Shown: one piece after another, positions 9,505 through 62,221 of the stretch
Layout of the letters: each line of letters begins with the position of its first letter
How positions within the stretch are numbered: the first letter of the stretch is position 1
Source of the DNA: Eledone cirrhosa
Lineage: Eukaryota
Reading direction: 5' to 3'
Length of the DNA: 64,000 bases
Assembly (NCBI GenBank): GCA_964016885.1
Contig: OZ024742.1
Span: 55,800,001-55,864,000 of the forward strand
The notes under the pieces: generated by a model
Told to the model about the DNA's origin: nothing
Database searches by the model: none
What the model saw: only the letters and a program-made list of their open reading frames with translations
Made by a program: the position numbers and the translations under genes

Positions 9505-10772
9505 TATATGTAAATCTTTATATTTGATAATCTGAGATGCAATTTGGGCCATATTGGCCTGCGCTTTCTAGCAACCAGTCCACTCGCCGTAAGCCACCAA
9601 TCACATTCTTTCTGACTTGACCACTGCCACGTCACAGTTCTTAGCCATTTTGAATTCGTTTCTGGCGGGGATCATTTAAGAAAAATCTTTGTGCAAGTGA
9701 GTTTGTTTCCTGATGAGTTTGAAGCTCGCGAATTTGTACTTGATAGGATATTTCCGAAAGCGAACGAAACCCTAAGGGTAGAAACAAATCCTGGTATGTG
9801 TATATGCATTTTTTCTTCTAACTTTAAATGTATACCTAATTGTGTATTGTTGACGGTATATTTAATCGATTTTAACGTGTTATTGAAATGTTGGGTAAAT
9901 ATTCTATGACGGTTGATCGCGAATAGATTGGTGTCGTTTATTTATCTACTGTTTATTCATAGGTGCCTTTTAATCTTATAGTCTTGTTTAATTGTTTTGT
10001 TTTTTTTTGTGTAGTTGATTATGCTAATTGGGAGAGGAAATGGTGTATATATATTATGAAATGATTCTATGGACATGCTTTATAGTATATTGCTCTGATT
10101 ATTTAATTTATTAATTCATCATTGAACCACATCGTGAATGGTTGCCAAAACATATATATCTGTGAGTTTGTCTAGTTTGTGTATATGTAAATCTTTATAT
10201 TTGATAATCTCCCATAAGGTTGAGATGCAATTTGGGCCATATTGGGCTGCGCTTTCTAGCAACCAACCCACTTGCCGTAAGCCACCAATCACATTCTTTC
10301 TGAGTTGACCACTGCCATTTCACAGTTCTTAGCCATTTTGAATTCGTTTCTGGCGGGGATTATTTAAGAAAAATCTTTGTCCAAATGAGTTTGTTTCCTG
10401 ATGAGTTCGAAGCTCGAGAATTTATCCTTAATAGGATATTTCCGAAAGCGAACGAACCCTGAGGGTAGAAAAAAATCCTGGTATGTGTATATGCATTTTT
10501 TCTTCTAACTTTAATTTTATACCTAATTGTGTATGGTTGACGGTATATTTAATCGATTTCCACGTGTTATTGAAATGTTGGGTAAATATTCTATGGTGGT
10601 TGATTGCGAATAGATTGCTGACGTTTATTTATCTACTGTTTCTTCATAGGTGCCTTTTAATCTTATAGCCTGGTTTAATTTTTTTTTTGTGTGTGTGGTT
10701 GATTATGCTAATTGTGTGAGGAAATGGTGTATATATATTATCAAATGATACTATGGACATGCTTTATAGTAT
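9505..10772. repeat. Head-to-tail tandem repeat, ~680 bp unit (family F)
   Basis: TGTAAATCTTTATATTTGATAATCT at 9509 and 10186; a diverged relative is at 26830-28075. Confidence 0.85.
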
Positions 10773-10787
10773 ATATATATATATACA

Positions 10788-13620: not shown

Positions 13621-13649
13621 CTTTGATTTCGTGTGTAGCTATGTGCGTT

Positions 13650-13906
13650 CCTTTGTCAGTGTTGAACAAACGAGCAACGATAGTTGCTACACACTACGGC
13701 TTAATACGGGATGTTTGCTTACAAACACACCGAGCATTATAATAAATGTTCGGTGAATCCATACGTACTATTTATATATGTGTGCATGTATGTATATATA
13801 TGTACATACTACTGTACGTCTGTATACATATATGTATGTACGTGTACATGCTTATATTTAAGTAACAGCCGTACTAAGAGTGGGAAATGAAATTTCGTTT
13901 CATTTT
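13650..13906. repeat. Diverged fragment of retrozyme-like family B
   Basis: GTCAGTGTTGAACAAA ... GTACTAAGAGTG.GAAATGAAATTTCGTTT shared with 35640-35880. Confidence 0.7.
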
Positions 13907-13911
13907 TTCCC

Positions 13912-13961
13912 TTTATATATATATATATATGTGTGTGTATGTATATGTGTGTGTATATATG

Positions 13962-14969: not shown

Positions 14970-17150
14970 CTCATTGACAGCTACTACGCCTCAATAAGCC
15001 CGGCACTGCTCAACAAAGCATTAACCCTAGCTAGCACCAACTCTGACATAACTAATAGGAGATTGAAATCATACTTATGGCTAGGCAGACCATCATTGAG
15101 TTCAACGACTCCTTCTGGACTAGAAAGGACAGAACAGACAACTTCGACATCACAATGGGCTCAAGCGACTCTGCGCAAATCACCGATTTAGTTGGAATCT
15201 CCCTATTACATAAATTCAGAGCAGAGATCTAACCCTTGCAAGGCGGAATATATAGGGACGACGCCCTATTTACAGTCCACAATTGCACTAATCGAGGCAT
15301 TGACTTGCTTAATAAACGATTACATAGATTTTTTTTAATAACGGTCTCTCTATCACCATAGGGCCGAACCATAAGGTAGTAAATTTCCTGGACGTTACCC
15401 TAGACCTTAATATCAATTTATATTACCCTTACCATAAACCAGGTGAAATACTTACATATATTAGCCCGCACTCTAACCACCCACCGGCAGTCATTAGAGC
15501 AGTCATTAAATCTATCTCTTATAGGATCTCCATGCTATCCGCAAATAAGGAGATATTTATGAAACACGCCGCATATTATATAAGGCCCTCTCTGAGTCTG
15601 GTCATGAACAGTCTATTTACTACATACCTAAATACCATAACACAGAATCTCACCACAACCATAATAAATTTAACACTAGATCTAGAAATACAATAGCATG
15701 TAGCCAGATACGCCGGAATTTTAGCATTAACAACACCTATACAGAGAACACTAATAGTGGCAAAGGCCTACTTCCCACTCCTAGTAGCAGACTCCTTAAC
15801 CCCCCCCCCTACTCATCTAAATTAGCCACTAATATCCCTAAACGCTTCTTCTCTATCCTATCTAAACATTTCCCTCTTAACAAACTCTTTAATAAAAACA
15901 ATATTAAAATCTCATTCTCCACGACACCGAACCTAGCTAGCCAACATCGCATTCAGTAACCATCATAAACTAAAAACATATAACTCCCACACCGCGGTAC
16001 CACCACCACCCTCAAATACACAACGCCACTACACCAATACTTACTCTAATAGCATACCCCCCCCCCTAATCCTATAAGTACACACCAGCTGCATAGTTTA
16101 AACAACCCTACCCTTAGTAATCGCAACAATAATTGCAACTGCCGTTACCCTAATGCATTCCAACTTAACGGACAGTGCCTTACACCCAATATAGTATATA
16201 GGTGCACAGTTAAAACGGCATCAGATACTAGCTCCTATATTGGCTCTACCTCTAACCCTTTTAAGGTACCTATAACGCGCACTTATTTTCCTTCCCTGAC
16301 CCTAGCAATAGATGCTCAACATCTCTAGCTAGGCTCATTAACAACCTTAAATTAACCAACATTGAACACTCACTAACATGGGATATCTTGGCTACATCCC
16401 CAGCGTTCAACGGACGAAGAATCTGTTGTGATATGTGTCTTACAGAGGCCTATTACATAACTCTGTCACGACCACAACCTATTAATGATAGAATTGAGGT
16501 AACTATTAACTGCCACCATCGAAGGGCAAATTCTTCGCCAACAGAATATTTGACCCAACATAGTCATCAAATCTCGCCATTACATATAGCTAGCATGTTA
16601 AATATTTAACTCAGACTTGGATGATTATAAGATGCCTCCCCTACATTGTCTCACATTAAAGCCTATTAGCATTTCTTAGTTATAAATTACCTATGAATTT
16701 AACTTTTCAAGGAGTTACCTCCCTCGAAACCCATCTCTAATTAGTAAGGTAAATTTCCTAAAGTGGCGATTTTATTACGCATAGGCAGACCTTGCTCAAT
16801 ACAGCCTCGAGAGAAGCGTAATGCTTGCTTATAGCAGACATTTGACACATCCAGGACCCCTTTCGTGAGATACTAATATATCTAACATCAAACTCACGTA
16901 ACCACCTTACTTTACTTTATTTTATATTCCTTATTACATCTTATCTCTATTAATATTTTCATTATCTCATTGAAGTTCTGAAGAGCTGCTCCATTACATT
17001 ACCTAAGTTACTTATCTTCATCTGAACCTGATCAATAACGATCCCTAATTAACTGATCCAGAGACATTATATGGAGTAGTGAAACAATTGTAAACAGACA
17101 TTATTATACCTCACATTAAACTATAATTACACTCTTATTCCTTACATTAA
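14970..17150 (+). mobile_element. Penelope-like element (Naiad-like), 5'-truncated, frameshifted
   Basis: IDSYYASISP, FDITMGSSDS, GGIYRDDA, VNFLDVTL, HSNHPP, NCNCRYP, YIGSTS, CCDMCLTE...NCHH. Confidence 0.9.
16975..17095 (+). ncRNA. Type I hammerhead ribozyme with ~75 nt stem II loop (GUA site)
   Basis: GTT-CTGAAGA-GCTGCTCCAT...ATGGAGTAGT-GAAAC-AATT-GTA-AAC. Confidence 0.8.
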
Positions 17151-18464: not shown

Positions 18465-20939
18465 TATGTTGGTTGTTTGCCGACACCTCAGTATGCAGAT
18501 TGGAGCACTCGACGAGGTGCGCAGGTTGGTTTGGTTACTCCGGAGTAATGTAAAATAAACTAAAATAAATAAGTCAAATATTTAAAATTTACCTTCGCTT
18601 ATTACTGCTATATATATTTCGGTGACAGCCATCTTTGGCTGTGATCTCTTTAGGCAGTCCGAATTAATGTGGTAGAGACGAGTACACATGTTTTTGAGGT
18701 GTTAACTATGTCAATACTCTGATATGCCCAGTTCCTGGTTGGGTTGTTGTTTCTATGAGGAACTGGAGTCATATGAATTTAAACAAACGAATTCCAGCGT
18801 CAAAGGACATTCTCTCGTCCCATTGGTCAATTGTGAGAACATTCCTCAGTCAAAAGTATATAGAAATTCTTTCTGAGGCGAGGCTATCTGTAGTGGTTGT
18901 TTTTGTTATTGTTAAGTACATCTGACCTCTACCCTTATGTTTGTATTTGTATTGGTGCTGCGGTCAGCTTAAGTCTTACTGCTGCTGATTTTAGGAGGAT
19001 CTGTGTGTGTGTGCTGGCATCCATCCTGCCACTATTTCTCGTGGTGGTGTTTGGGTGGGGGTGGGGGGGGGCAAGCTTATGAAGAAATAAAAGGCAATAA
19101 AATGAAAAAATAAAAAAAGAAGAGAACAATAGAATGAAATGAAAATGTAAATGACTAAAAAATAAGAATAAAATAAAGAAATAAAAAAGTCAAGTAGAGT
19201 AAAATGAAATAAAATAAGATAGAAAATAAATATAATATAAGCAAATAAGTGTGGGTGTGTGTGGGTGTGTGTGTGTGGGAGTGTGCAGAGGGGATGCAAC
19301 TGGACCTGTGCCTGTGCGTGCTTGCCTGGAACGATGCGAGTTGATAGACACGAATATGAGCTCCATGCCATAATGGGAACTGTAGTCCTCCACATTTTCC
19401 GATTTCAACACCCGGGTTATGGGCTATTACACTCCACCCTTGTCTCACCTGCTCTTAATACACAACACACCATGATAGTCTAGGGATTGATTCTGACACA
19501 GCCTTTCTAATTTGTCCAGCATCTTCCAAATCTTTCTAAATTTGAGATCGGTTATAACACACACACATTTTATTTGAATATCCTATTTTATTCTTCTATC
19601 ATCGTATTCCTTCTACCATTTTATCATTTTTTTTGTTTACTTATTTGCTTATATTATATTATTTTTTCTATCTTATTTTATTTCATTTTACTCTACTTGA
19701 CTTTTTTATTTCATTATTTTATTCTTATTTTTTAGTCTTTTACATTTTCATTTCGTTCTATTGTTCTCTTCTTTTTATTTTTTCATTATATTGCCTATTA
19801 TTTCTTCATATGCTTGGCACAACCCCCCCCCCCCCACACACACACACACACACCACCACCACGAGAAATAGTGGCAGGATGGATGCCAGCACACACACAC
19901 AGATCCTCCTAAAATCAGCAGCAGTAAGACTTAAGCTGACCGCAGCACCAACACCAATACCAACATAAGGGTAGAGGTCAGGTGTACTTAACAATAGCAA
20001 AAACAAACACTACAGACCGCATCACCTCAGAAAGAATTTCTATAGACTTTTGATTGAGGAATGCTCTCACAACTGACCAATGGGAGGAGAAGATCTTCCA
20101 AATCTTTCTAACTTTGAGATTGGTTATAACACACACATTTTATTGGATTATCTTATTTTATTCTTTTATCATCTTATTCCTTCTACCATTTTATCTTCTT
20201 TTTGTTTACTTTTTTGGTTACTTATTTGCCTATATTATCTTATATTATTTTATTTTAGTCTATCTTATTTCATTTTGTTTCATTTTACTCTACTTTTCTT
20301 TATTTTATTCGCATTTTTTAGTGTTTTACCTTTTCATTTCATTCTATTGTTTTTTTATTATTTATTATTTATTTATTATTTTTTATTTTCTTCATCTTAT
20401 TGCCTCCTATTCCTTCATATGCTTGCCCCTCCCCCCAACCACCACCACCACTACCACGAGATATGGTGGCAGGATAGATGCCAATACACACACAGATCCT
20501 CCTAAAATCAACAGCAGCAGGAATTAAGTCTGACCCCAGCACCAACACCACTACCAACATAAGGGTAGAGGTCAGATGTACTTAACAATAACAAAAACAA
20601 CCACTACAGATAGCCTCGCCTCAGAAAGAATTTCTATAGACTTTTGATTGAGGAATGTTCTTACAACTGACCAATGGCACGAGAGGATGTCCTTTGACGC
20701 TGAAATTCGTTTGTTTAAATTCATATGACTCCAGTTCCTCATAGAAACAACAACCCAACCAGGAACTGGGCATATCAGAGTATTGACAAAGTTAACACCT
20801 CAACAACATATGTACTCGTCTCTCCCACACTAATTCGGACTGCCTGAAGAGGTCACAGCCAGAGATCGCTGTCACCGAAATATATATAGCAGTAATAAAC
20901 GAAGGTAAATTTTAAATATTTGACTTATTTATTTTAGTT

Positions 20940-20947
<8 letters not shown>
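18465..20947. repeat. Family C inverted and tandem array
   Basis: Minus copy 18465-19250 is inverted against plus tandem copies starting at 19521 and 20093 (ATCTTCCAAATCTTTCTAA); flanked by (TA)n. Confidence 0.85.
20839..20893 (+). ncRNA. Type I hammerhead ribozyme, intact (AUA site, family C)
   Basis: ACTGC-CTGAAGA-GGTCACAGC...GCTGTCACC-GAAA-TATATA-TA-GCAGT. Confidence 0.85.
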
Positions 20948-20978
<31 letters not shown>

Positions 20979-28075: not shown

Positions 28076-28163
<88 letters not shown>

Positions 28164-28190
28164 GGTTACACAACAGTTAGTTCACCTTAT

Positions 28191-28228
28191 CGAGAACAAT
28201 TGTTTCACCTTAGCGGATCCTCAGCTCG
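28191..28228 (-). ncRNA. Minimal type I hammerhead ribozyme (GUU site) inside palindrome 28162-28288
   Basis: Reverse complement: CGAG-CTGAGGA-TCC-GCTAA-GGT-GAAAC-AATT-GTT-CTCG. Confidence 0.8.
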
Positions 28229-28375
28229 AGGATACGCTAAGGTGAAACAATTGTTCTCGGTATGGTGAACTAACTGTTGTGTAACCACTTCTACCTAACT
28301 CGTCCCATGGACTGAGTGCTCTACCACTACGGATATTACCTTCCAGTGTTCCACCACTATATATATATAAGTGTG

Positions 28376-28409
<34 letters not shown>

Positions 28410-28411
<2 letters not shown>

Positions 28412-28542
28412 GAATTAGCCGTAGAAACGGCTTGAGCTCAGCTGTCGGGGTCTTACTGGTTCCTATTACCCACTCTACTACCTCAAGTATTGAGTACTTT
28501 GGTGCGTTATGGTCCACCTGGTTCCTTACCACATTTCCTTCG

Positions 28543-28545
<3 letters not shown>
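28410..28545 (+). repeat. Short pLTR-like family G
   Basis: CCTATTACCCACTCTACTA core; reverse copies at 29605-29742 and 55290-55410. Confidence 0.7.
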
Positions 28546-28574
<29 letters not shown>

Positions 28575-28592
28575 ATACTTTGGTCAGAAACG

Positions 28593-28724
<132 letters not shown>

Positions 28725-29342
28725 TAATCTCCCAAGTCTAGCAATTAACCAGTTAATTTCTTTTGATTTTTTTTAGTTAATTCTATTGACTGATTAATCG
28801 CTTAAGTTTATATTAAAAACTACTCGCTCGAGAGCTTAATTTGTTTTGTGCTATTTTTGCAAATTTGTGCAATGACTACACATACTGAATTCTTTTGCCA
28901 AAACTAGGGGTTTTCTCCCCTTTGGAGGTCATATGTGCTTTCGAACACTGTGAGATCCTGGCGCATGCAGAACAAAATGCCTGTTGAGAAAGTGATATCC
29001 TTGTTCGATCATTATACCAAAAGCTTATTATTTTTTATAAGCAGACAGTATTATTGATTTAGGTGTCGCAGAAACACTATATCGGATTTTACCATCATTC
29101 CCCGGGGTCCGGGAAATATTTCAATCATATCTTATGTTGTTTGACCCGCTCAGCTTGCTCGCATTTTTGGCTTAGGTGGTTAATGGCTTCTTAACCATCG
29201 TCTCAGATTTGTATGGCCTTTTTAACTTATGTTTACAGCTCTGGTATCTTCATATACATTGAGCGCTTGCCAACACAATTCGGAAGTTGCGTTTCGCTAA
29301 TTTCTACGCGCCGAAATGCGATTCCCGCTAAATTTATATTTG

Positions 29343-29376
<34 letters not shown>

Positions 29377-29382
29377 GTGTGT

Positions 29383-29556
<174 letters not shown>

Positions 29557-29908
29557 TTACCCCCGATTGAACCCGGAATAACTTATATATATATATATAT
29601 ATATAACGAAAGAGTTGTGGTTAAGGACGAAATGGACCATAACACACCACAGTACTCAATACTTAGGGTAGTAGAGTGGGTAATAGGAGAAAGTATGACT
29701 CCGACGACAGAGCTCAAGCCGTTTCGACGGCTATTTCTGGACTAAAGTAAGAGTTTTTTAGTCTGGTAAATAAATAGCCGTTCTTTTCAAGGGGTACTTC
29801 CTTATATGGGAAGATTGTAGTTGTCAAGAGGTTTGATCAACATTTGTAGCAGACACAGAAAAGTCTATCATGGTAGTGGGTGCAGGGTGGGGTTGGTTGA
29901 ACTTGCTT

Positions 29909-34745: not shown

Positions 34746-34821
<76 letters not shown>

Positions 34822-35105
34822 TTGTAATAAAACGAAAACGAAATTTCATTTCTCACTCTTAGTATGGCACTTACTTAAATGTAAGTATTATGTATACGTA
34901 CATACATATATGTATACAGACGTACAGTAGCATGCATATATATATATATATATACAGGTACACATACATATATGTACGTATCAGTTTAGCGGACGCTTAT
35001 TATAGCGCCCGCTTTGTTCGTTTGTAAACAAACTGAACAGCCTGAATTTATGCCGCACGGTGTTAAGGCAACCACGTCACCTTTTTGTTCAACACTGACA
35101 CAGGA

Positions 35106-35148
35106 ACGATGTACTAGTTTCAAGCTTGTTAGCTATCATCAGCACCGT
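35106..35148 (-). ncRNA. Minimal hammerhead ribozyme (family B)
   Basis: Reverse complement of the motif at 35815-35857. Confidence 0.85.
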
Positions 35149-35508
35149 ATACCCATCTGCCACATAGTTGAACGTTCGAAAGTATATACTTTCCTTATGA
35201 AAATTAACGGCTGAGCAGCCTAATTTGCATATCGAGTGAGTTAAATCGGTCAGGCGCACCGAAAACGATGAGTTGTAATAAAACGAACACGAAATTTCAT
35301 TTCTCACTCTTAGTACGGCACTTACTTAAATGTAAGTATGTATGTATACGTACATACATATATGTATACAGACGTACAGTAGGTGACGTGGTTGCCTTAA
35401 CACCGTGCGGCATAAATTCAGGCTGTTCAGTTTGTTTACAAACGAACAAAGCGGGCGCTATAATAAGCGTCCGCTAAACTGATACGTACATATATGTATG
35501 TGTACCTG

Positions 35509-35581
<73 letters not shown>

Positions 35582-35814
35582 TACTGTACGTCTGTATACA
35601 TATATGTATGTACGTATACATATATACTTACATTTAAGTAAGTGCCGTACTAAGAGTGAGAAATGAAATTTCGTTTTCGTTTTATTACAACTCATCGTTT
35701 TCGGTGCGCCTGACCGATTTAACTCACTCGATATGCAAATTAGGCTGCTCAGCCGTTAATTTTCATAAGGAAATTATATACTTTCGAACGTTCAACTATG
35801 TGGCAGATGGGTAT

Positions 35815-35857
35815 ACGGTGCTGATGATAGCTAACAAGCTTGAAACTAGTACATCGT
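35815..35857 (+). ncRNA. Minimal hammerhead ribozyme (family B, GUA site)
   Basis: ACGGTG-CTGATGA-T-AGCT-AACA-AGCT-T-GAAAC-TA-GTA-CATCGT. Confidence 0.88.
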
Positions 35858-36008
35858 TCCTGTGTCAGTGTTGAACAAAAAGGTGACGTGGTTGCCTTAA
35901 CACCGTGCGGCATAAATTCAGGCTGTTCAGTTTGTTTACAAACGAACAAAGCGGGCGCTATAATAAGCGTCCGCTAAACTGATACGTACATATATGTATG
36001 TGTACCTG

Positions 36009-36076
<68 letters not shown>

Positions 36077-36233
36077 TGCTACTGTACGTCTGTATACATA
36101 TATGTATGTACGTATACATACATACTTACATATATATATATATAGAGAGAAAAATACTGCAGGTAGCGCATGGTTAACATGTAATAAAATGAGTCCCTCA
36201 TCAGTGATTTGCCGACGATCATAGATATTTCAT

Positions 36234-37708: not shown

Positions 37709-38277
37709 CACACATATACATTATGTGCATACACGCACGCATATTTATACGCCCGTATACGTAAAAAATACTTACACACAGACACACACACTTGCGTTGG
37801 TTCGGGAAGGGAAGTATGTGTTGGCGGTGTTGATGAAGTATGGAGTTGTGTCTAATAGTGTGATGGGTTACAGGTTCAAATGTGACATAGGTAACGAGGG
37901 GGAAAAGAGTTCATAGACGTATGGCGATGTGTGTTATGGTCATGCATGCTGGTGGGGTGGTGCTGGAGTGATATGATCGACAAAATGATTACATGATTAG
38001 AAGTTACGGTGTGTTACAGGGTAAGGCAGACCGGGGGGGGGGGGTATAATAAATCCATCTGGGAGTGAGGGATGATATGTGTTGATGATGTTAATGATGT
38101 TAATGATTGTTGAATATATATATATATAAATATATATATAAATAGAAGTTGTATTTAATTTGTTGGAAGTCCGACAAACATAAACGTTTATAACTGATTT
38201 AGAGCACTCAACAGTTTACTGGAGTAAATATTCAATGATATTAAATAAATGGAAACTATATTTATAAAACCATATTT

Positions 38278-38340
38278 ATTTTATTATATATATTTCAAGG
38301 GTAACCAAGACAACATTGGTACGCTTTCATCAGATAAAAT
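38278..38340 (-). ncRNA. Type I hammerhead ribozyme, intact (family E, AUA site)
   Basis: Reverse complement: ATTTTAT-CTGATGA-AAGCGTACCAA...TTGGTTACCCTT-GAAA-TATATA-TA-ATAAAAT; the mirror copy 41464-41527 has GAAT. Confidence 0.8.
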
Positions 38341-38958
38341 ACAAATTGTGTTTTATATATAGAGACGTACCCATGAAAATCATACCTTATTGGTTGGAAA
38401 TTCACTAGGTAGTAGAAATATATTAAGGATTATTCAAACTTATGTGTGAATATGCAAATGAATATGTAAATAATTGAAAAACAACCGTTTATTTAAATGA
38501 CACTGGAGAAAGATAGAGAAGAAAGAGAAAGAGAAAAAAAATATTAATATTACGAGAGAGATAGAGAGAAGAAATTAACAAGAGGATGAATAGAACTCAT
38601 GTAAGGTTAATATGGGGGAATAACTTTTCAGTATATATCTACTAATTGTACGTACATTTACGATTATTTAGTTGTTAAAATTCTTTTTAATATAATATTT
38701 ACTCTTATAAGTAGATAGAAAAATAAATAGATATATATAGAAAAATAAATATATATAAAATTAGATAGAAAAATATATGGAAAAATAAATAGATAGAAAA
38801 ATAGATAGATAGAAAAATAAATACAAAAATAAAAATAAATCAAGAAATAAATAAATAGATAAATAGATAGATAAATGGATAGATGGGTATATCGTGTTAT
38901 ATATAATTGTTTTAATGAGTTATGAGGGATATTTGTTTATATTTAATGTAAGTAATTA

Positions 38959-40075
38959 AAAACAAATAACGAAACGAAATTAAATTTCGTTTCGTTTGTA
39001 ACTCACTTTTGTATGACTGACGCTTAAACAATTAAGTTAAAAATGTACATCCACATATGTATACTGAAATACTAGTATGCATATGAATACACACACGTAT
39101 ACATATGTAGATGTACCAAGTCTTTCACTGGTCACTTTACTGTGAGTGGCCAGCTATTCTGTATGTAAACACACAGACAAACCGGTTTTTAGAGTCATAC
39201 TGGTTTTTGAGGAAACACCTTTCCTCTATTCTCCAGAAAGCCAGACAAGGAATATTGAACTAGTTTTGTTGTTGTTACAACTCATCAGCAATATTTACCT
39301 ATCTACCGGCCTTTCTGGAGAATCGTAAAAGCAGATATCGTTATATGCTTTTTCTATGAAAATTAGTTGTGGGCAGACTAATTTGCATAGAGTGTGAGTA
39401 CGTACCGGTTCAACGGAGACGATAAAAACAAATAACGAAACGAAATTAAATTTCGTTTCGTTTGTAACTCACTTTTGTATGACTGACGCTTAAACAATTA
39501 AGTTAAAAATGTACATCCACATATGTATACTGAAATACTAGTATGCATATGAATACACACACGTATACATATGGATGTACATGTGGATGTACATTTTTAA
39601 CTTAATTGTTTAAGCGTCAGTCATACAAAAGTGAGTTACAAACGAAACGAAATTTAATTTCGTTTCGTTATTTGTTTTTATCGTCTCCGTTGAACCGGTA
39701 CGTACTCACACTCTATGCAAATTAGTCTGCCCACTACTAATTTTCATAGAAAAAGCATATAACGATATGTGCTTTTACGATTCTCCAGAAAGGCCGGTAG
39801 ATAGGTAAATATTGCTGATGAGTTGTAACAACAACGAAACTAGTTCAATATTCCTTGTCTGGCTTTCTGGAGAATAGAGGAAAGGTGTTTCCTCAAAAAC
39901 CAGTATGACTCTAAAAACCGGTTTGTCTGTGTGTTTACATACAGAATAGCTGGCCACTCACAGTAAAGTGACCAGTGAAAGACTTGGTACATCTACATAT
40001 TTATACGTGTGTGTATTCATATGCATACTAGTATTTCAGTATACATATGTGGATGTACATTTTTAACTTAATTGT
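38959..40075. repeat. Retrozyme-like family A: ~465 bp unit, partial tandem and inverted
   Basis: AAAACAAATAACGAAACGAAATTAAATTTCGTTTCGT at about 38959 and 39424; flips at about 39575. Confidence 0.9.
39808..39852 (+). ncRNA. Minimal hammerhead ribozyme (family A, GUU site)
   Basis: AATATTG-CTGATGA-GTTGT-AACA-ACAAC-GAAAC-TA-GTT-CAATATT; the mirror copy 39251-39295 has AAAAC. Confidence 0.9.
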
Positions 40076-41704
40076 GTAAGTAATTAAGTTAATTGAGTTA
40101 ATAAGAATATTTATATTTATATATTTTAAATTGGGAAGATACAGAAAAATCTCAAGTTTTGTTTATTTATTCGTTAGTATGAGACTATTTTGTCAAAATA
40201 AGTTTAAATGTTAAAGATATAAATTTTAAAGATATATCTAGCCTGAGTTAGTTAGTAAATCTAATAAAAGATATTAAAAATACAAATTATAATTACACTT
40301 ATAATATTCCTAATTATTTCCATAAAAATCTTATCCACTCTGTTTTAATATATTGTTATCTCTAAATGATATCTATAATATTTGCTATAATTTCACTTCC
40401 TAAAACTTCTTAAAATATATACATATATGTTCCTAACTTTTAAATTTAAATTTTAACTTTAATTTTAATATTTTTTAAGTTTTTTTAATTCTTTATTTTT
40501 TATTTTTTATTTCTTAAATTTTTCATATATTTTAAAAATTACTTATTTTTAAAAATTACTTTTTATTATTATTTTTTTAATTTACTTATCTCTTATAAAT
40601 TATGTTTTTAAAGTTTTCCCGAATTTTTAATATTTTTTAATAAAATGTTTTAATACATTTTATTAGATTTATAACCACTAACTAATTCAGGCTAATTATA
40701 TCTTTAATATTTATATCTTTAAAATTTAAATTTATTTTGAGAAAATAGTCTCATACTAACGAATAAATAAACAAAACTTGAGTTTTTTCTGTATCTTCCC
40801 AATTTAAAATATATAAATATAAATATTCTTATTAACTCAGTTAACTTAATTACTTACATTAAATATAAACCAATACCCCTCATAACTCATTAAAACAATT
40901 ATCTATAACACGATATACCCATCTATCCATTATCTATCTATTTATCTATTTATCTATTTCTTGATTTATTTTTATTTTTATATTTATTTTTCTATCTATC
41001 TATTTTTCTATCTATTTATTTTTTCATATATTTTTCCTATCTAATTTTATATATATTTATTTTTCTATATATATCTATTTATTTTTCTATCTGCTTATAA
41101 GAGTAAATATTATATTAAAAAGAATTTTAACAACTAAATAATCGTAAATATACGTACCATTAGTAGGTATATACTTAAAAGTTATTCCCCCCTATTAACC
41201 TTACATGAGTTCTATTCACCCTCTTGCTAATTTCTTCTTTCTATCTCTCTCGTAATATTAATTTTTTTTTCTCTGTCTCTTTCTTCTCTATCTTTCTCCA
41301 GTGTCATTTAAATAAACGGTGGTTTTTCAATTATTTACATAATCATTTGCATATTCTCACATAAGTTTGAATAATAACTAATATATTTCCACTACCCAGT
41401 GAATTTCCAACCGATAAGGTATGATTTTCATGGGTACGTCTCTATATATAAAGCAAACTTTCTATTTTATCTGATGAAAGCGTACCAATGTTGTCTTGGT
41501 TGCCTTTGAATTATATATAATGAAATAAATATGGTTTTATAAATATAGTTTCCATTTATTTAATATCATTTTTGTTCGTGGAAACGTTCCCTTCACAAAA
41601 CATACAGGTAATATATACTTACTATGCAAATAAGTAATGGTAAAAACAAAACATATACTTAGCTACCACATCAAGACGTAAAATATCCACGTATAGATCA
41701 TACT

Positions 41705-42059: not shown

Positions 42060-43387
42060 GAAGGATTTAAATGGATAGAGTTCAGTAAAAGGAATTTATT
42101 GACACGTGTTTCAATAACAGTTATATAACCTGAAAACAGTTGCTATCTTCAAAGTATTAATTATGTAGACACAATATTTCAATGATATTTTCAACTATCA
42201 TTTCATCAGAATAATCTCATTGAGAACTTGTTTGGTTTTTATAGAGAATATTAAGAGGGAGGAGTGAAGTTGTTAGGAGTATAGTTAAGGGAGTAGATAG
42301 ACATGTTTGATAGCAGTGGGTAATTAGATTCCCATCTGTTGTTTTGACATTTTTATAGAATACATTATTTGGCGTTGGTTATTTTTCTAAATCTATAGAA
42401 GGATTAGAGATAGTAAAGATATGCATGGTTGGTTTTGTGTTTGCATTTAATTAACATACAGACTTGAATTTTTCTTTCAAGTGTGTGTATCCGTTCGCCC
42501 ACACATAGATATATGTTTATATATACTTATTTTTTAAAGAAACATACACATTCACACACATACATATATGCACACCTCTCCAAATACATACACTCACGTA
42601 CACATACTTACATGCTCATACTTACATACATATATACATGTACATATATATATATACATATATACATATATATATGTACATACATACGCATTCATATATA
42701 TACACTTTCATACTCTACTTATCTTCATATACACACATATATAGACACACACATATATACATACATACATTCAAGTCTGTATGTTAATTAAATGCAAACA
42801 CAAAACCAACCATGCATATCTTTACTATCTCTAATCCTTCTATAGATTTAGAAAAATAACCAACGCCAAATAATGTATTCTATAAAAATGTCAAAACAAC
42901 AGATGGGAATCTAATTACCCACTGCTATCAAAAATTTCTGTCTACTCCCTTAACTATACTCCTAACAACTTCACTCCTCCCTCTTAATATTCTCTATAAA
43001 AACCAAACAAGTTCTCAATGAGATTATTCTGATGAAATGATAGTTGAAAATAACATTGTAATATTGAGTGTCTACATAATTAATTGTTTCTACTTTAGGC
43101 ACAAGGCAAGCAATTACCCAGTGCATTACTGGTACTTTATTTTATCGAACCCGTAAGGATGAAAGACAAAGTCAATCTCGGCGGGATTTGAACTCAGATC
43201 GTAAAGGGACGTAACTATGGTGGAAAGCATGGCGCCCGACCCTCTACCGATACTGCCAATCCACCGCCCTGAGTGTCTACATAATTAATACTTTGTAGAT
43301 AGCAACTGTTTTCAGGTTATATAACTGTTATTGAAACACCTGTCAATAAATTCCTTTTACTGAACTGTATCCATTTAAATCCTTCTT
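42060..43387. repeat. ~410 bp inverted repeat, right arm interrupted by a SINE
   Basis: Arms 42060-42468 and 42770-43387 around a CA/TA spacer. Confidence 0.85.
43081..43269 (-). mobile_element. tRNA-derived SINE with ~16 bp TSD
   Basis: TGAGTGTCTACATAAT at 43065-43080 and 43270-43285; empty site visible in the left arm (about 42155-42175). Confidence 0.9.
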
Positions 43388-44424: not shown

Positions 44425-47140
44425 GGAAAACACAGGTAAGCATTAAGAGAAGGTTTTTATCCAGGTATTTAGGACCGTTTCATTGGTAAGTTCAACCTTA
44501 TATTTCTATACTGCAAATATCAGCCACTCAATGATAATTGTTGTTCACGTCCACATTTTCAAAATAGTGAGTAAGTTACTGTTGAAATAGTTCTTAATAT
44601 ATAGAGAAACACATTTTTTTGGAATTGTATTTACTAGTATAGAGAGAGAGGAAGAGGAATTAGAAAGTGGGAGGACAAACGGAATAGTATAGAGAGAGAG
44701 AGGAAGGGGGAGAAGAGTTAGGAAGTAGAGTCACAAACTGAGATGGAGGGCGGGATAGAGGTGGAAGGATTCATTGATCAGTTTTGATACGTAGACTTCA
44801 TGTCGTTTTAGAGTGTAGTGAGTTAAAGAGAATTAAATTGTCCATAGTGGGAGGGATGGAGAGAGAGAGAGAGAGGGGGAGATATAAAGAGATAAATATA
44901 TATATAAAAAATAAAGATAAACATAATAATGATAAAAATAAAAGTAAAGAAGGGAGGGGGAGAAAGAAGAAAAGAAAAGATAGCCAAAAAGGGAAGGGAA
45001 GAAAGGAAGAAAACGAAAAGAAATAGAAAAGGAATGAAGGAGAAGGGAGGGATATAGGTATTGGTTTTTATGGGTAATTAAAGGGGTTAGTCTAAGTATA
45101 TGCAGTTTGTCAGTTGGTAGTAAGCGGTTAAGGGATTGATTTGCACTTGTAGTGCGAAAACTTTTCTTTGAGTCTATGGTTACAATAAATTGATCTTTCG
45201 ATTTTTTTGTTGAGTAACTTATTCTTCGAACTCAAAATGTGGAACAGCTCAAGGTTACATAATCGACAACTTCTCATACCACTCCGATATGGCGGCGCGT
45301 TCGATAATCTTTTCCACTTCAGGGTGTATTGATGCTTACCTTCCCTCAGTTGCCAGGTCTTGTTTGCAAGGGTAGTTACATAACGATGCTGGGAATGTTT
45401 CATTGCGTAACGGTGTGTATACCAACGGGCTTTAAATGTATTCTCAGTCGCTCCGATGTAATACCATTTCTGGTTGTCTGATTCTACTGTGCATTGGTAA
45501 ACCAGGTTAGACTGCATATATTCATTATGTAATGGACAGGTTTCAGGTAGGTGGCAGTTACAATTCTTGTCATGGGCAACTTTGGCATTATTGGTGGGCT
45601 GCGATGCCTGTACAACTGTGTTACATTTTGTTTGCCTATTAGTGGGTGGTTGTGTATTAGATATTCTGTTGTGTTCAATGGTGATTATATTGTTATTGTT
45701 ATACATTTGTGTTCTGGTGTTGTTATGTATCTTTTTAGCGTTATGCATCTTAATGTGTGCGTCTATATTTGGTGCCGTGGAGTAAGATAATCTAATAGAT
45801 TTAGTGTTAACGATTTTGCTGTATCTATGTGAATCTGGAAAGTGCTTATTTATTATTCTAAAAATGGTAGAGGATAGGTTAGTACTAATAGAGGTGTTAA
45901 ATATGGGGTTATACCAAATATATCTTGTACTGCGTGACTTCTCTGATTTCGATGTTGTATTTCTATTTACCGTATAATTTATAGTTCAATGCGTAAATGC
46001 GTGTGTGCGTGTGTTTCTGGAGTTTGTGTTATGCGTGTTCGTGTGCGCTTTGCGGAGGCTCTCATCTATATATTCTACTCTATCTAAGTGGCCTGCCTTT
46101 TCTAGTGCGGTGTTGTAGTATTCTGCATGTTCCTCGAAGATTTGTCGGTTAGACGAGAGGCGGGAGATCCTAAGGGATATGCTGAGTGGAATGGATTTAA
46201 TTATGGATAGTGGGTGCTTTGAGTTACAGTTGATGTATGCTAAGTTTTCATTAATCTTGTGAAAAGGTCTTATAAGACCCGTATTTAGCTTAAGCGTCGC
46301 GTCCAGAAAGTTAACTGTTTTAGTGCTATACTCATACGTTATGCTAAGGGCTTGTTTCCCGAGAGTCTTTCTAATATTCTTACACAGTCTTTCTATGCTC
46401 TGGTTATTTATGTTCTTAACTAGGAGAAGGGCGCCGCCTCTGTAGATTCCACCGGGAAGTTCGCTAAACTCACTCTGTAAACTATAGTCTATGTAAATAC
46501 CGACTAAATCTGTGACTTGAGCCGAGTCGTTAGCCCCATCGTGATGTGAAAGTTATTTAATCTATCCTTACGTTCCCAATAGGCGTTTTCAAATTTAATT
46601 ATTGTTTTCCTAGCAGCTAATATAATTTTTATCTCGTCGTCTGTTAGATCAGAATTGGCTTTGGCGAAAGCTAAGGCTTTATCCAAGTTGTTGGGGGATA
46701 TAAAGGAGTAATAGTCGTTAATGTCAAATTGTATATACTTAGATACAAATGTGTATACGATGGATACAAATGTGTATACGATGGATATTAATACATACAA
46801 TGGCTTCATACGGAAAGAATTACATAGGAAATACAAAAAGAATAATGAGGCGGCACTGATAAACATCAACAACGAGGCACACAATATAGTCAAACACCTA
46901 GCAATAGACGACAGAACGGAGCCACTTAGGCCATGTACCCCCACATTTAATTTCAACGACCACAAGGTAAATGTTGATTATAACCCCACAATTAGACTTA
47001 TATGCCCGTCCAAATCGGACATCGGGAAAATTAGTAAACATATATTAGACAGAGTGATAGCACAAATGAAGAATAAACTAGTGATTAAACTATGGGGTAA
47101 CATTACCGAAACAATTAGCACAAAAGGCCATGAAGTTTGA
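44420..47140 (-). mobile_element. Penelope-like element (Naiad-like) with inverted 5' RT segment
   Basis: Minus: YIQFDINDYY, FHITMG, NFLDATL, WYNP and GIY-YIG ORF 45128-45748; plus 46780-47140 reads NDHK...IRLICPSKSDIGKISKHIL; degenerate hammerhead at 44470-44526. Confidence 0.9.
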
Positions 47141-53440: not shown

Positions 53441-53448
53441 ATATATAT

Positions 53449-54015
53449 AAATGTAATCTGAGTTTTTCAAATATTGATAATAATATTCGATTCGTTTGCA
53501 ATTTTGCAAACAGCTTCTTTTTAAAGCCATGTTAGTAGAATGAGCCCCTCATTCTTGTTCTTGTATTGGCATGTAAACAGAACTGCAGACACTAATGTTT
53601 CTGGGGGATTACCCTTCATCAGTGCAGTCTACTGCTCACCTGATATCTGTCAGAGCTAGTGAAAATATATGATATTTTCTGAAATATACAGTGACTGATC
53701 GGCCTGATTTGCATATATGCAGACTGGCTGATTAGTCAGATCTTCATATTAGCAGATCTGACTGATCAGCCAGATTTGCATATCAGCAGATAGGTCAGTT
53801 AGTTTCATGTATACGAGCAGCAATTAATGGCCGGCCTTGCATTGATGAAGGGTAATCATCCAGAAACATTACCGTCCGCAGTTCTGTTTACATGCCAAAA
53901 CAACAGCAAGAATGCGGGGCTCCTTCTCCTGACATTGCTTAAAACGGAGGCTGTTTGCATAATTGCAAACAAATCGAATATTATTATTGATATTTGAAAA
54001 ACTCAGATTACATTT
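53449..54015. repeat. Inverted repeat (~175 bp arms) with ~32 bp minisatellite spacer
   Basis: 53449-53625 versus 53838-54015; spacer repeats CTGATC.GCC.GATTTGCATAT..GCAGA. Confidence 0.85.
53582..53628 (-). ncRNA. Type I hammerhead ribozyme (GUC site)
   Basis: Reverse complement: ACTGCA-CTGATGA-AGGG-TAATCC-CCCA-GAAACA-TTAG-TGTC-TGCAGT. Confidence 0.8.
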
Positions 54016-54555
54016 ATTGTATTCAGCCACATAGAGCGATAACTATTTGTTAGTACATGTGACTACGTAGACGATTGAAAAAAATGGAAATACAATTGAA
54101 GCTGTCAATGCATAGAGACTACAGAGAATATCCTGATATTAGGATATATGTGCCAGCGTAACAGAGAAAAGTGTGCATTAGCATGCATCGGAAACGACAC
54201 CACACCTTTTTATTTTTTGCGATAATCTGGCTAACCGATGACATCAACTTACCAACAACTACCTTTTAAGGTTAAATTTGGAAGCTCTCGAGTTAATCGT
54301 GGTACACGTGTAAACACATGTGAATAATAATAGTGGGGATTAAGCATTTTGAAAATAGGATTAGAAGCTTTCACCATTGATTATAGATAATTGTGTAATA
54401 TTAAGGCAAATGAACCCTCATAACGGAGAAAAATGGGCATTAACATGCGTTTCATGCTAATGCCTACTTTTTACCATTATGTGGGTTCATATGACCCAAG
54501 AGAGTATATTTTGTAGTCAATATACTGTGATAAGCCTCTCTCTCTCTTTCTCTCT

Positions 54556-58341: not shown

Positions 58342-58371
<30 letters not shown>

Positions 58372-58378
<7 letters not shown>

Positions 58379-59360
58379 AGTATGTATGTATACGTGCATA
58401 CATATATGTATACACACGTACAGTAGTAAGTATATATATACATACATGAACACACATATATATATATGCACGTATCGGTTTACCGAACATTTATTATAAT
58501 GCTCGGTTTGTTTGTTTGTAAACAAACAAACAGCCCGATTTACGCCGTACACTGTTTAGGCAACCACGTCACCTTTTTGTTCAACACTGACACAGGAACG
58601 ATAAACTAGATTCAAGCTTATTAGCTATCGTCAGCATCGTATACCTTCCTGCCAGATGGTTGAACGTCTGAAAGTATATACTTTCCCCATGCATATTAAC
58701 GGCTGAGCAGCCTAATTTGCATATCGAGTGAGTTCAGTCGGCCGGGCAAACCGAAAACGATAAATGGAATAGAATGAAACGAAATTTCATTTCTCACTCT
58801 TAGTACGGCACTTACTTAAATGTAAGTATGTATGTATGTATACGTACATATATAAATGTGTATACAGACGTACAGTAGTATGTATATATATACATACATG
58901 CACATATATATATATATGCACGTATCGGTTTACCGAACATTTATTATAATGCTCGGTTTGTTTGTTTGTAAACAAACAAAAAGCCCGAATTACGCCGTAC
59001 AATGTTCAGGCAACCACGTCACCTTTTTGTTCAACACTGACACAGGAATGATGGACTAGTTTCAAGCTTATTAGCTATCGTCAGCATCGTATACCTTCCT
59101 AGCAGATGGTTGAACATCTGAAAGTATATACTTTCCTTATGCATATTAACGGCTGAGCAGCCTAATTTGCATATCGAGTGAGTTCAGTCGGCCGGGCAGT
59201 GAGAAATGAAATTTCGTTTCATTCTATTCCATTTATCGTTTTCGGTGTGCCCGACCGACTGAACTCACTCGATATGCAAATTAGGCTGCTCAGCCGTTAA
59301 TATGCATAAGGAAAGTATATACTTTCAAACGTTCAACCATCTGGCAGGAAGGTATACGAT
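58372..59360. repeat. Retrozyme-like family B subfamily: two ~446 bp tandem units plus an inverted piece
   Basis: TGTAAGTATGTATGTA at 58375 and 58821; 59199-59360 is inverted. Confidence 0.9.
59048..59090 (-). ncRNA. Minimal hammerhead ribozyme (family B variant, GUC site)
   Basis: Reverse complement: ACGATG-CTGACGA-T-AGCT-AATA-AGCT-T-GAAAC-TA-GTC-CATCAT; the copy at about 58598-58640 has GAATC. Confidence 0.85.
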
Positions 59361-62221
59361 GGCAGCATCTATGCGACTCTTGACCTCAGCTGCGCCCTGT
59401 CCCGTTGGATACCACTGTTGAGCCCAGGTAGATGAAGGACTCCACATCCTGCAGGTCCACGCCCTCGAGAGATATCGGCTGCCAGGCATCAGGCGAGACC
59501 AGTGACGTCATGACCTTCGACTTGGCGGCATTGATTCGTAGACCAACAGCGGCGTCTGCGGTGTACACACTTTCGAGAGCAACTTGTACATCTGGCCCGT
59601 TAGCGCCCATCAGCACGATGTCATCTGCGTAGGCCAGGTCCGTCACCACGACCCCTATCTCGACCTCTATGTCCGGGTAATCCCGGAGCGCTGTGTTGAG
59701 AGTGTAGTCAATGGCGTAGTTAAAGAGAGTTGGCGATAGCGCAGACCCCTGCCAAACAGCAGTCCCAACATCGAACGACTGGGTCTCCCCACCATAGACC
59801 CTCACTCGGGCCCGATTCGACCGGTAGTAGCCTTGTATGAGACGAAGCAGCTTCACTGGGATGCCGTCCGCCTGCATTATACGCCATAGGGCTTCCCGAT
59901 CTACCGAGTCGAAGCCAGCCGCAAAGTCAATGAAGCAGAGGACGGTAGGCTGTTGATGTGCCCACCGTTGTTCCAGGACACGCCGGAGAATGAAGATTTG
60001 ATCAACGCACACCCTCCTCGGACGGAAGCCGCCCTGAGAAGGACGGGTCCGGACATCACTGATGGCCTGGAACCTCAGCAGAAGAATTCAGCAGAATAAT
60101 TGCGAAGGTTTTGGCAGCAACGTCAATTAAACTGATACCCCTGTAGTTGGAACACGGTTTCCTGTCGCCTTTTTTGAAGAAGAGTAGGAGAGTTGCCTCG
60201 CTCCAGTCATCAGGGAACCGCTCCGTCGCCCACACCGAGGAGAAGACTCGATGGAGCCAAGCTGCGAAGACATCAGGCTCGGCCTTGTAGACCTCAGCTC
60301 GAACGCCCTCTTCGCCCGGCGCCTTGTTATTCCGGAGATGTGTCAGGACACTACGTACCTCCTCGACGTTTGGAGGGGCAATGCTGCACCCGTATTCTTC
60401 TCCGGAAGGCTGCACGTAGGTTGGTGTGGGTGGTGGCGGGTGGTTGAGCAGCTCGGAGAAATGGTCCCGCCATCGGACTAGCCGGTCATTAAGATTGGTA
60501 ACGACCGCCCCGTTCCGATCACGGATCATCTCGCTGATACCCGCGACTGCTTCGGTTAGCCCGCTTCACCAGTTCGTAGAGATTGCGCGAGCCACCACAG
60601 GCTGCTTCCCTCTCCGTGTGCTCCGCAAATTCGCGCCAGTGGCAATTCCGATCGGCCCGAATAGCCCGAGATGTGCGACGTCGGAGATCTCGAAGATTGG
60701 GTGCACCCTCGAGTCGGGCCTCTCTCGCCATCTCCGCGAGTTCAAGAGAGCCGCCAGAGATCCAGTTGCGATGGCCTCTTCGGGTCACCCGAGATGCTCC
60801 CTGGCCACCTCAACCGTCACCGCCCTGAGCGCGTTCCACTCCTGCTCCGGTTGCTGTTCCACTTCGTTACTCAGCATTTGGAATGGGCTTCGCAGCTCTA
60901 GCCGGAAAGCATTTCCAGCATCGAGCTTGAATCGCGAGATGTCGATCCTTTTCTGGCGGTTGGGAGGAGGTTTCGCCTGCAGCTGCAGACGAAGAGTTGC
61001 TCGAACAAGAGTATGGTCTGACCCATGCTCACTGTCCGTATCACCCCCCCCCCCCCCCCCCCCCCCCCCGATACGCACGCGAGTCCATCATTGAGCTTGC
61101 CCACCGAGATATGACCAGGATGTAGTCAATCTGATTGGCCGTTCTTCCGTCATTGGATCGCCACGTGACGAGGTGACGCCGAGGATGTTGGAACCGGATG
61201 TTGGTGACGATAAGACGATTGGCATCCGCGAAGGACACGAGCCGTTCACCATTGTCACAACGTACGCCTAGGGCGAAGCCTCCTAGAATATGCCGTGTTG
61301 TATCATCAGCCGGCCTCGTCCGCGCATTACGATCCCCAGCGACAATGAGAACATCACTGGAGGGGACGCCATCCATGGTTGTTTGGAGATCGGTATAGAA
61401 CTGCGTTTGTCCGCCTCATCCGCATTGAATGTGGGAGAGTAGATGGAAATTAAGCTGACGTTGGAGATTTGACCCTTCAATCGAACCAGCGCGAGTCGGT
61501 GTGAGATCGGCTGCCACGCCAGCAGAGCCGTTTGCGCGTCGGGGCTGAGCGATACAGCGACCCCGTGAAGGCCACTGTTGTCAGTCACGCCACTATGGTA
61601 CAAGTGGTAGGAGATGTCCTCGCCATGAACTTTGATCGGAAGATGACCAACATCGGGAAGTCGAACTTCTGAAAGGTTAGCGACACTAACGCAGTACCTA
61701 TGCAGAGCCTTCATTGTAAGTGCCTGGACACCGTTGTGACGAAGTGTTCGGACGTTCCAGCACGCCACCCTCAATTCCTTCCTTCGTCTGAAGAGCAGGA
61801 CTACTGCGAGAGTAGTCTGTAGAGCCATAGCGGTAGGAGCGCTGTTGCTTTGCATTGCGTTCGTAGCGGGAAGGCAATTCGTATTCATAGTTCGTATTTG
61901 TAGGATTCATGGAAGAAGTGAATTCACAAGCGGTCCCCCCAAAACCCGCATGTATATCCCGAACGGGTGGAAAAACGTCCTGTTTGCCGCAGATTCTCCA
62001 CAGACGCAGGGACAGAAACGACCCGAAGCCGCCGGTTACCGGAACAAAGACCTCTTGGATTTTCACCAAAGCCCCTTTTGCCGGGTTGCGGCCCTAATAC
62101 TGCTGGGTGCCAGACCAATCCGCCTTAGGTGGTCGTACCAGGAGCCGAAGTTCCCGACGGCATAGCTCTGACACTACCCGTTGCCACCACCCTGCCACGT
62201 TGAAGAGAAGTTGGACTTTAG

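Follow-up and report, generated by a model that had tools for sequence, protein, structure and literature searches.

The window analysed here is a stretch of 64,000 nucleotides from Eledone cirrhosa (assembly GCA_964016885.1, contig OZ024742.1, positions 55,800,001 to 55,864,000), and positions are those of the window unless another locus is named. Between 34817 and 36134 it contains a single two-armed insertion in (TA)n, in which a minus arm and a plus arm of a repeat designated family B stand head-to-head. All family B positions are numbered on a natural copy, 35582-36010 (+), read in the sense of the hammerhead (ref). The features of the locus are the following:

34749-34819, no strand: (TA)n target tract, left
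34817-35381, minus strand: minus arm, a full monomer 35381-34931 (451 nt) and ref 1-114, ending at the distal, 'long' RT start
34817-34875, minus strand: tail, ref 56-114, between the two putative RT start sites, present at this locus at the end of the minus arm only
35107-35147, minus strand: type I hammerhead, cut predicted between 35112 and 35111
35182-35231, minus strand: U6-like box (35231-35220) and TATA-like element (35189-35182)
35381, no strand: 5'-5' head-to-head junction, ref 1 against ref 300, overlap of 1 nt
35381-36134, plus strand: plus arm, ref 300-429, TA tract, monomer 35582-36081 (500 nt) and ref 1-55, ending at the proximal, 'short' RT start
35509-35579, plus strand: internal TA tract of the monomer, which sets the period; second copy at 36009-36073
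35732-35781, plus strand: U6-like box (35732-35743) and TATA-like element (35774-35781), the first base of the latter being changed in this copy
35816-35856, plus strand: type I hammerhead, cut predicted after 35851, with a one-pair helix III, a palindromic loop and U.U at the base of helix II
36131-36144, no strand: (TA)n target tract, right

The minus arm comprises 1.25 units and the plus arm 1.6 units, with one intact hammerhead in each; the two hammerheads, whose cores lie at 35821-35845 (+) and 35142-35118 (-), are identical over 41 nt, and the arms differ at 2 of the 341 positions compared. The difference in length between the two monomers (451 vs 500 nt) is due to the internal TA tract alone. 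The preliminary description of this DNA had spoken of units devoid of a credible ORF, each with one hammerhead, arranged head-to-tail, then inverted and inserted at (TA)n. The lack of an ORF (the longest stop-to-stop frames round the monomer measure 78 codons in the sense and 82 in the antisense direction), the single hammerhead per unit, the inversion and the (TA)n target were confirmed. The head-to-tail order holds in the sense that both arms are partial tandems, but each has one hammerhead only. Since neither arm possesses two cores, the locus cannot release a cut-to-cut monomer, and the proposal that its own transcripts would do so was not upheld.

The hammerhead of family B is predicted to adopt a type I fold. 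In this fold helix I (CGGUG/CAUCG) contains an internal loop and is extended over a long distance; it is followed by CUGAUGA, a helix II that has U.U as its basal pair, GAAA, helix III and GUA. In nine distinct hammerhead sequences of families A and B 91% of the paired cells were in agreement with this fold, compared with 33-47% in slid controls, and two-sided changes in 6 of the 14 pairs, across both families and their subfamilies, showed covariation; because the structure was drawn from the same sequences, which are related, the shuffle control does not represent a probability. Loop II and the internal loop of helix I are common to families A and B. Helix III could form one pair at most in the monomer, as two pairs would leave a loop of 2 nt, and its palindrome would allow two copies to pair with each other over 6 bp. 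In axolotl, weak monomer cleavage has been tied both to a helix III of one pair and to U.U in helix II, and HHR_Amex1 cleaves better as a dimer (PMC7229834); for 8 of 9 predicted Xenopus retrozymes no cleavage was reported (bioRxiv 10.64898/2026.07.22.740005). The search of Rfam gave no match to the family B hammerhead among the 150 of 155 matches listed (E<=1), and the assignment rests on the motif scan and the covariation; family A alone matched HH9, below the gathering threshold (38.6 of 52 bits). The miRNA matches of Rfam in the window were rejected as TA artefacts. The family B unit is described as the carrier of a type I hammerhead for which cleavage is predicted, and its circle, as folded in silico, would be highly paired with the hammerhead left free (z -8.5).

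Family B is a young, abundant, non-coding repeat of about 450-500 bases. The exact 30-nt core was found 10,692 times in the 3.0 Gb genome and the exact long-end/TA junction 1,656 times, with 0 occurrences of the control in both searches; the copies are dispersed across many contigs, and identity is 99-100% among the best 40 of 1,707 candidates. The first 100 of the 10,692 cores belong to 56 loci, in 17 of which two exact cores lie one period apart, so that these tandem loci, unlike either arm of 34817-36134, should in principle be able to yield a monomer. The periods, 458-586 nt (n=48), are set by the TA tract and are array-specific, with a standard deviation of 3.9 nt within arrays and 22 between them (11 arrays), the locus 34817-36134 (451 vs 500) being the exception. 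Arms reach about 10 units, and at L099 both arms have at least four. A unit of this size had been thought long for metazoan retrozymes; at 451-586 nt it falls inside the 51-972 bp of published retrozyme consensus lengths (bioRxiv 10.64898/2026.07.22.740005) and at the upper end of the 150-450 bp given for HHR repeats (PMC7229834). Contigs from four sequencing runs of unrecorded kind contain the repeat and its subfamily alleles; contigs cannot tell a circle from a tandem. The two relatives indicated earlier within the window, at 58372-59360 and 13650-13906, are both real, and their limits and nature were refined as follows:

58371-59361, minus strand: insertion of an older subfamily; its minus arm, 58371-59197, has the short end and contains two cores, of which one is mutated, and its plus arm, 59198-59361, is truncated by an RTE-like LINE
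13646-13916, plus strand: older fragment that lacks the hammerhead core and stops at the distal start, in (TA)n

The former shows 84-86% identity, and its second core has GAAT in place of GAAA. The adjoining segment, 59362-61906, is a broken RTE-like LINE with endonuclease and RT pieces on the minus strand.

The window is rich in other elements of similar appearance. Family A (38957-40080) is a sister retrozyme of 466 nt that shares with B the box, the loops and a tail with two starts; it forms an array of 30 near-identical units at G000:C1:5738332-5751969, and at L020 one of its units has inserted into the TA tract of a B copy. Family C (53447-54017 and L187) is a hammerhead element in which the core is preceded by three or four octamer-like boxes in tandem. 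The segment 47272-51569 is a decayed Neptune-like Penelope element (PLE) with inverted pLTRs in (TA)n, the long end to the left and the short end to the right, and near-intact relatives occur at L121 and L122. Further foldback or tandem elements, most of them with hammerhead-like cores, lie at 18548-20949, 38234-41570, 42156-43084, 28137-29739 and 9505-10776, and of these at least D, E and F seem to represent the pLTRs of Hydra-like PLEs. Decayed pieces of Hydra-like PLE ORFs with a C-terminal GIY-YIG domain were found at 45128-47140, 2986-3888 and 15328-16609.

The ends of family B insertions were mapped on 78 records from 77 loci, selected by the core, which biases the sampling yet should not mask a pile-up of 5' ends. 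The 130 arm 3' ends were distributed between ref 49-59 (53 ends) and ref 102-114 (54), 17 running out in the TA tract without being resolved and 6 lying elsewhere; thus 107 of the 130 end at either of two fixed sites about 57 nt apart, an interval that corresponds to the Penelope 'tail'. Forty-six head-to-head junctions were mapped, 20 of which were left out because their ends were not both resolved, and all the 26 resolved inverted insertions combine a short with a long end (p=3e-8). The junctions mostly show an overlap of 1-5 nt, and the 91 inner 5' ends are uniform round the monomer (KS p=0.76), with one at the hammerhead cut site, against 1.9 expected, and four at the predicted transcript start. 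Two RT start sites flanking a tail are the signature of PLEs (PMC11167929), and for PLEs in general a tail at a single end of inverted insertions has been described (PMC8557442). The coding PLEs of the genome behave in the same manner, short and long ends being paired in 11 of 11 resolved pairs of Hydra-like elements (one ambiguous pair excluded, one duplicate counted once) and in 13 of 16 pairs of Neptune-like elements. The insertion ends are direct DNA evidence that family B is mobilised by the PLE reaction, and the earlier suggestion of PLE-type copying is substantiated by the two fixed 3' ends together with the one-sided tail in 26/26 resolved inverted insertions.

Comparison with host genes revealed that ref 151-162 matches a box which three types of host U6 gene and the one promoter-bearing U6atac gene have at -77 to -79, the TATA-like element lying downstream of the box in B. 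The host snRNA loci read were 6 of 20 for U6, 8 of 8 for U6atac, 4 of 20 for U2 and 7 of 20 for U1; two U6 and seven U6atac matches with no box at the expected place, which resembled retrocopies, were excluded from the promoter set. With a matrix built on the four host promoters, B scored 15.5 bits, A 16.8, C 12.4 and the Neptune pLTR less than 4; leave-one-out values were 9.9-17.6 bits and the shuffles gave 0/300, for a motif that was defined after the match had been seen. The U1/U2 promoter matrix gave no match in families A, B or C, and a likeness of B to the U1/U2 element noticed by eye was therefore dropped. The stretch ref 151-200 is the most conserved outside the ribozyme, with none of its 50 positions variable and a variation of 0.7% vs 5-6% alongside (45 loci), and it is part of the sole region of A and B aligned by blastn. 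Box and core together occur 26,341 times in the genome, and the 100 occurrences listed fall in families A, B and C. The spacing from box to TATA is 42 nt in B vs 46-48 in host U6, that is 4-6 nt shorter, and runs of T7-T12, which should stop Pol III, are present in 22 of 77 read-through tails. The transcript is predicted to start at ref 224-229. The box motif contains an octamer, and use by Pol II would therefore also be possible. Each B unit thus appears to carry a conserved candidate internal promoter box, predicted from these comparisons and a new observation.

In the host snRNA promoters (L129-L131, L169, L149-L151, L207-L217; 120 nt upstream) the 12-nt box of U6/U6atac stands at -77 to -79, U1/U2 have TCAGT at -56 to -58, and all of them have a TATA-like element near -30. 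Retrocopies of U6atac/U6 (L173:1270-1630, L171, L142) were observed in TA tracts or head-to-head with PLE-type elements, which suggests snRNA capture at PLE insertion sites.

That family B might serve as pseudo-LTR to a coding Penelope element with an overlooked ORF is an explanation invited by its pLTR-like hammerhead, tail and inversion, by the direct joining of a B unit to a PLE ORF at three loci (L061, L064 and L125) and by the extent of the survey, which covered about 110 loci. The ORFs at these three loci, however, belong to families with their own, different pLTRs, and in the 40 long-flank loci, taken in chromosome order with 8-9.5 kb each (one 4.5 kb), there was no RT ORF between two B units (0/40, upper 95% bound 7%). 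The arrangement pLTR-ORF-pLTR was absent from 38 young and 33 older-subfamily 3-kb records, and the sequence upstream of the B promoter block was always the tail of the preceding unit. A sister hammerhead family that could be the parent of B was not found by a pattern search, the 100 listed of its 197 matches being mostly B/A variants. In the loci sampled B is not the pLTR of a coding element, and its derivation from one with a missed ORF is very improbable. Still more improbable is a DNA-level satellite or foldback, its inversions and TA flanks having been produced by recombination or assembly error: the assembly is rich in microsatellites and the window in foldbacks, but the two fixed 3' ends, the strict pairing of short with long ends and the variable 5' junctions contradict it, as do the observance of the same end rule by the coding PLEs and the dispersal of B over many contigs.

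The template of copying can be judged from the arms. Median divergence amounted to 0.84% inside one arm, 1.06% when opposite arms were compared and 5.77% for different loci; in all 27 arm pairs the partner arm was nearer than the median other locus, in 18 of them within the closest tenth, and private variants common to both arms were found at 34817-36134, L037/L040 (in all 8 units), L047, L058, L067, L068, L072 and L079. For 52 of 147 units, chiefly among very young copies, a non-sibling unit was closer than any sibling, and because the L023 array has an ABAB pattern and that of L068 is a mosaic, DNA-level duplication or conversion also shapes arrays. The arm identity, the even junction phases and the long arms point indirectly to a monomer circle, which accounts for them most simply. 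Matching arms would also be expected if B were a non-autonomous PLE whose template is uncut read-through RNA, long and linear, from homogeneous tandem sources, with no need of a circle, the hammerhead being kept for another reason or cutting late and long arrays growing later by unequal exchange. The weak helix III, the ABAB and mosaic arrays of L023 and L068 and the acceptance of unprocessed RNA by PAc in vitro would agree with this, hammerhead cleavage being dispensable and uncut RNA the main template in that one PLE (PMC11167929). Against it stand the 5' ends, which are not piled at the predicted start (4/91), the locus L099 with a single period in both arms of at least four units, the fact that copying from linear RNA can do no more than shorten arrays, and the conserved, covarying core and helices of the hammerhead, and we regard copying from linear RNA as an unlikely alternative. 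The preferred reading, with a probability of roughly 0.7, is that family B is a non-LTR retrozyme with PLE tail ends, whose self-cleaved, circularised monomer RNA is likely copied by a Penelope RT into (TA)n on both target strands.

According to this retrozyme reading, the U6-like box and the TATA of each unit would initiate transcription about 45 nt ahead of the position cut by the hammerhead, tandem loci with two hammerheads would excise the monomer, probably via a dimeric fold, and a host ligase would close the circle. The insertions themselves show that copying begins at TA, at one of the two fixed sites (ref about 55 or 109-114), and that in inverted insertions the short site is used on one strand and the long site on the other; the two arms have a sequence variant in common, extend round the unit to any length and are joined head-to-head, with overlaps of 1-5 nt. 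The enzyme would be provided in trans, by a young Hydra-clade PLE, a Neptune-like PLE or another.

The candidate Hydra-clade PLE has an intact 821-aa frame, a TA target and 150 scored matches at 98-100%; at L299:1276-7634 intact copies stand in tandem with a period of 3,896 nt, and near-identical copies are many. The ORF of L299, read by eye, contains a C-terminal GIY-YIG, DKT, a CxCX5C linker, CxxC and CxH, has no CCHH and shows RWT for RWK, and by these motifs, compared with section 11 of PMC8557442, its RT is putatively placed in the Hydra clade. Elements of the L299 type are probably active. The other candidate is TA-targeting, has intact frames up to 1,167 aa and is presumably Neptune-like, judging by its motifs. 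Pfam gave no match on either intact protein, no sequence similarity of B to the Hydra-like or Neptune-like pLTR was found, and folding of the tails gave no structure common to B and either candidate. The Hydra-clade element has in its favour strict end pairing like that of B (B vs Neptune, p=0.049), a youth that matches that of B and, in the young-B loci, six joins of B to Hydra-type ends (L052, L076, L096, L016, L061, L064) vs none to Neptune; for the Neptune-like element speak a tail of comparable length, the sequence TATCGT, which follows its long start just as it does in the majority of B and A copies, and a single join of B to its ORF (L125). Other joins involve unassigned families (L055, L075) and RTE-like tails (L042, L070, L073). 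Hybrid junctions were rejected as decisive proof of the partner, as nested insertion with target deletion fits most of them equally well. At L061:3738-5250, L064:1220-4815, L052, L076 and L125 the two arms come from different families and are still short plus long where assignable; these mixed-family insertions reflect either a hybrid event or nested insertion with deletion. We lean slightly towards the young Hydra-clade PLE as the source of the RT in trans; the Neptune-like PLE seems a somewhat less likely one. Since B is very young and the genome contains near-identical 821-aa PLE frames, partner and template are both testable in vitro with natural sequences.

One may tentatively go further and imagine family B as a self-contained RNA-circle parasite, equipped in each unit with a promoter box of host U6 type, a hammerhead gated by dimer formation and a tail for the docking of a PLE; a dimeric Hydra RT would prime both target strands at two fixed sites of one and the same circle and roll round it. 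Should this be true, the genome would record rolling-circle reverse transcription of an animal retrozyme, and the three box-bearing families A, B and C (26,341 units) would behave alike.

Retrozymes are an established class (PMC7229834, PMC7761336, bioRxiv 10.64898/2026.07.22.740005). The literature scanned on cephalopod hammerheads and retrozymes, retrozyme U6 promoters and non-autonomous Hydra hammerheads, with subscription papers mostly outside its scope, holds no description of B; the supplements of PMC8557442 and bioRxiv 10.64898/2026.07.22.740005 may list related elements. Family B resembles the metazoan non-LTR retrozymes of coral, mussel and axolotl (PMC7229834) in that its non-coding tandem units measure a few hundred bp and have one type I hammerhead apiece, its GC content is low, its copies number thousands and its predicted circle is highly paired, and it shares the one-pair helix III with palindromic loop with axolotl HHR_Amex1 and the U.U at the helix II base with HHR_Amex2. 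The two-armed inverted insertions with PLE tail ends, the internal TA tract and the U6-like box are peculiar to B in comparison with the passages on those retrozymes. According to these passages retrozymes seem to have neither promoters nor motifs that reveal a partner; a promoter box in every unit would explain constitutive expression, contrary to this view. An internal promoter of snRNA type is reported for newt satellite 2 as well and is cited in PMC2220036 as Pol II, whereas the box of B matches host U6/U6atac and not host U1/U2, and the B unit is larger than satellite 2 of newt and axolotl.

With the pLTRs of PLEs (PAc Poseidon, Hydra and Neptune; PMC11167929, PMC8557442) family B has in common a tail that is bounded by two RT starts and confined to one end, the inverted 5'-truncated arm and the (TA)n target. 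It differs from them in having no ORF, a monomer that closes on itself, a long helix I in the hammerhead and a tail of 54-59 nt, compared with the 30-40 bp cited for pLTRs. The PLE-derived retrozymes of Xenopus (bioRxiv 10.64898/2026.07.22.740005) and non-autonomous Chlamys elements such as MRC1 are, like B, non-autonomous, multi-copy, head-to-tail and PLE-linked, and they resemble an autonomous family in sequence, whereas for B no such resemblance to Hydra-like or Neptune-like pLTRs was found. The mobility of animal retrozymes is an open question, the partnership with PLEs having been proposed, in the bioRxiv study, from homology and co-occurrence and not from insertion ends, and the circular template being a model. 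The insertion ends of family B tie a retrozyme to the PLE reaction, and a circular template agrees with the likeness of its arms and with the phases of its junctions.
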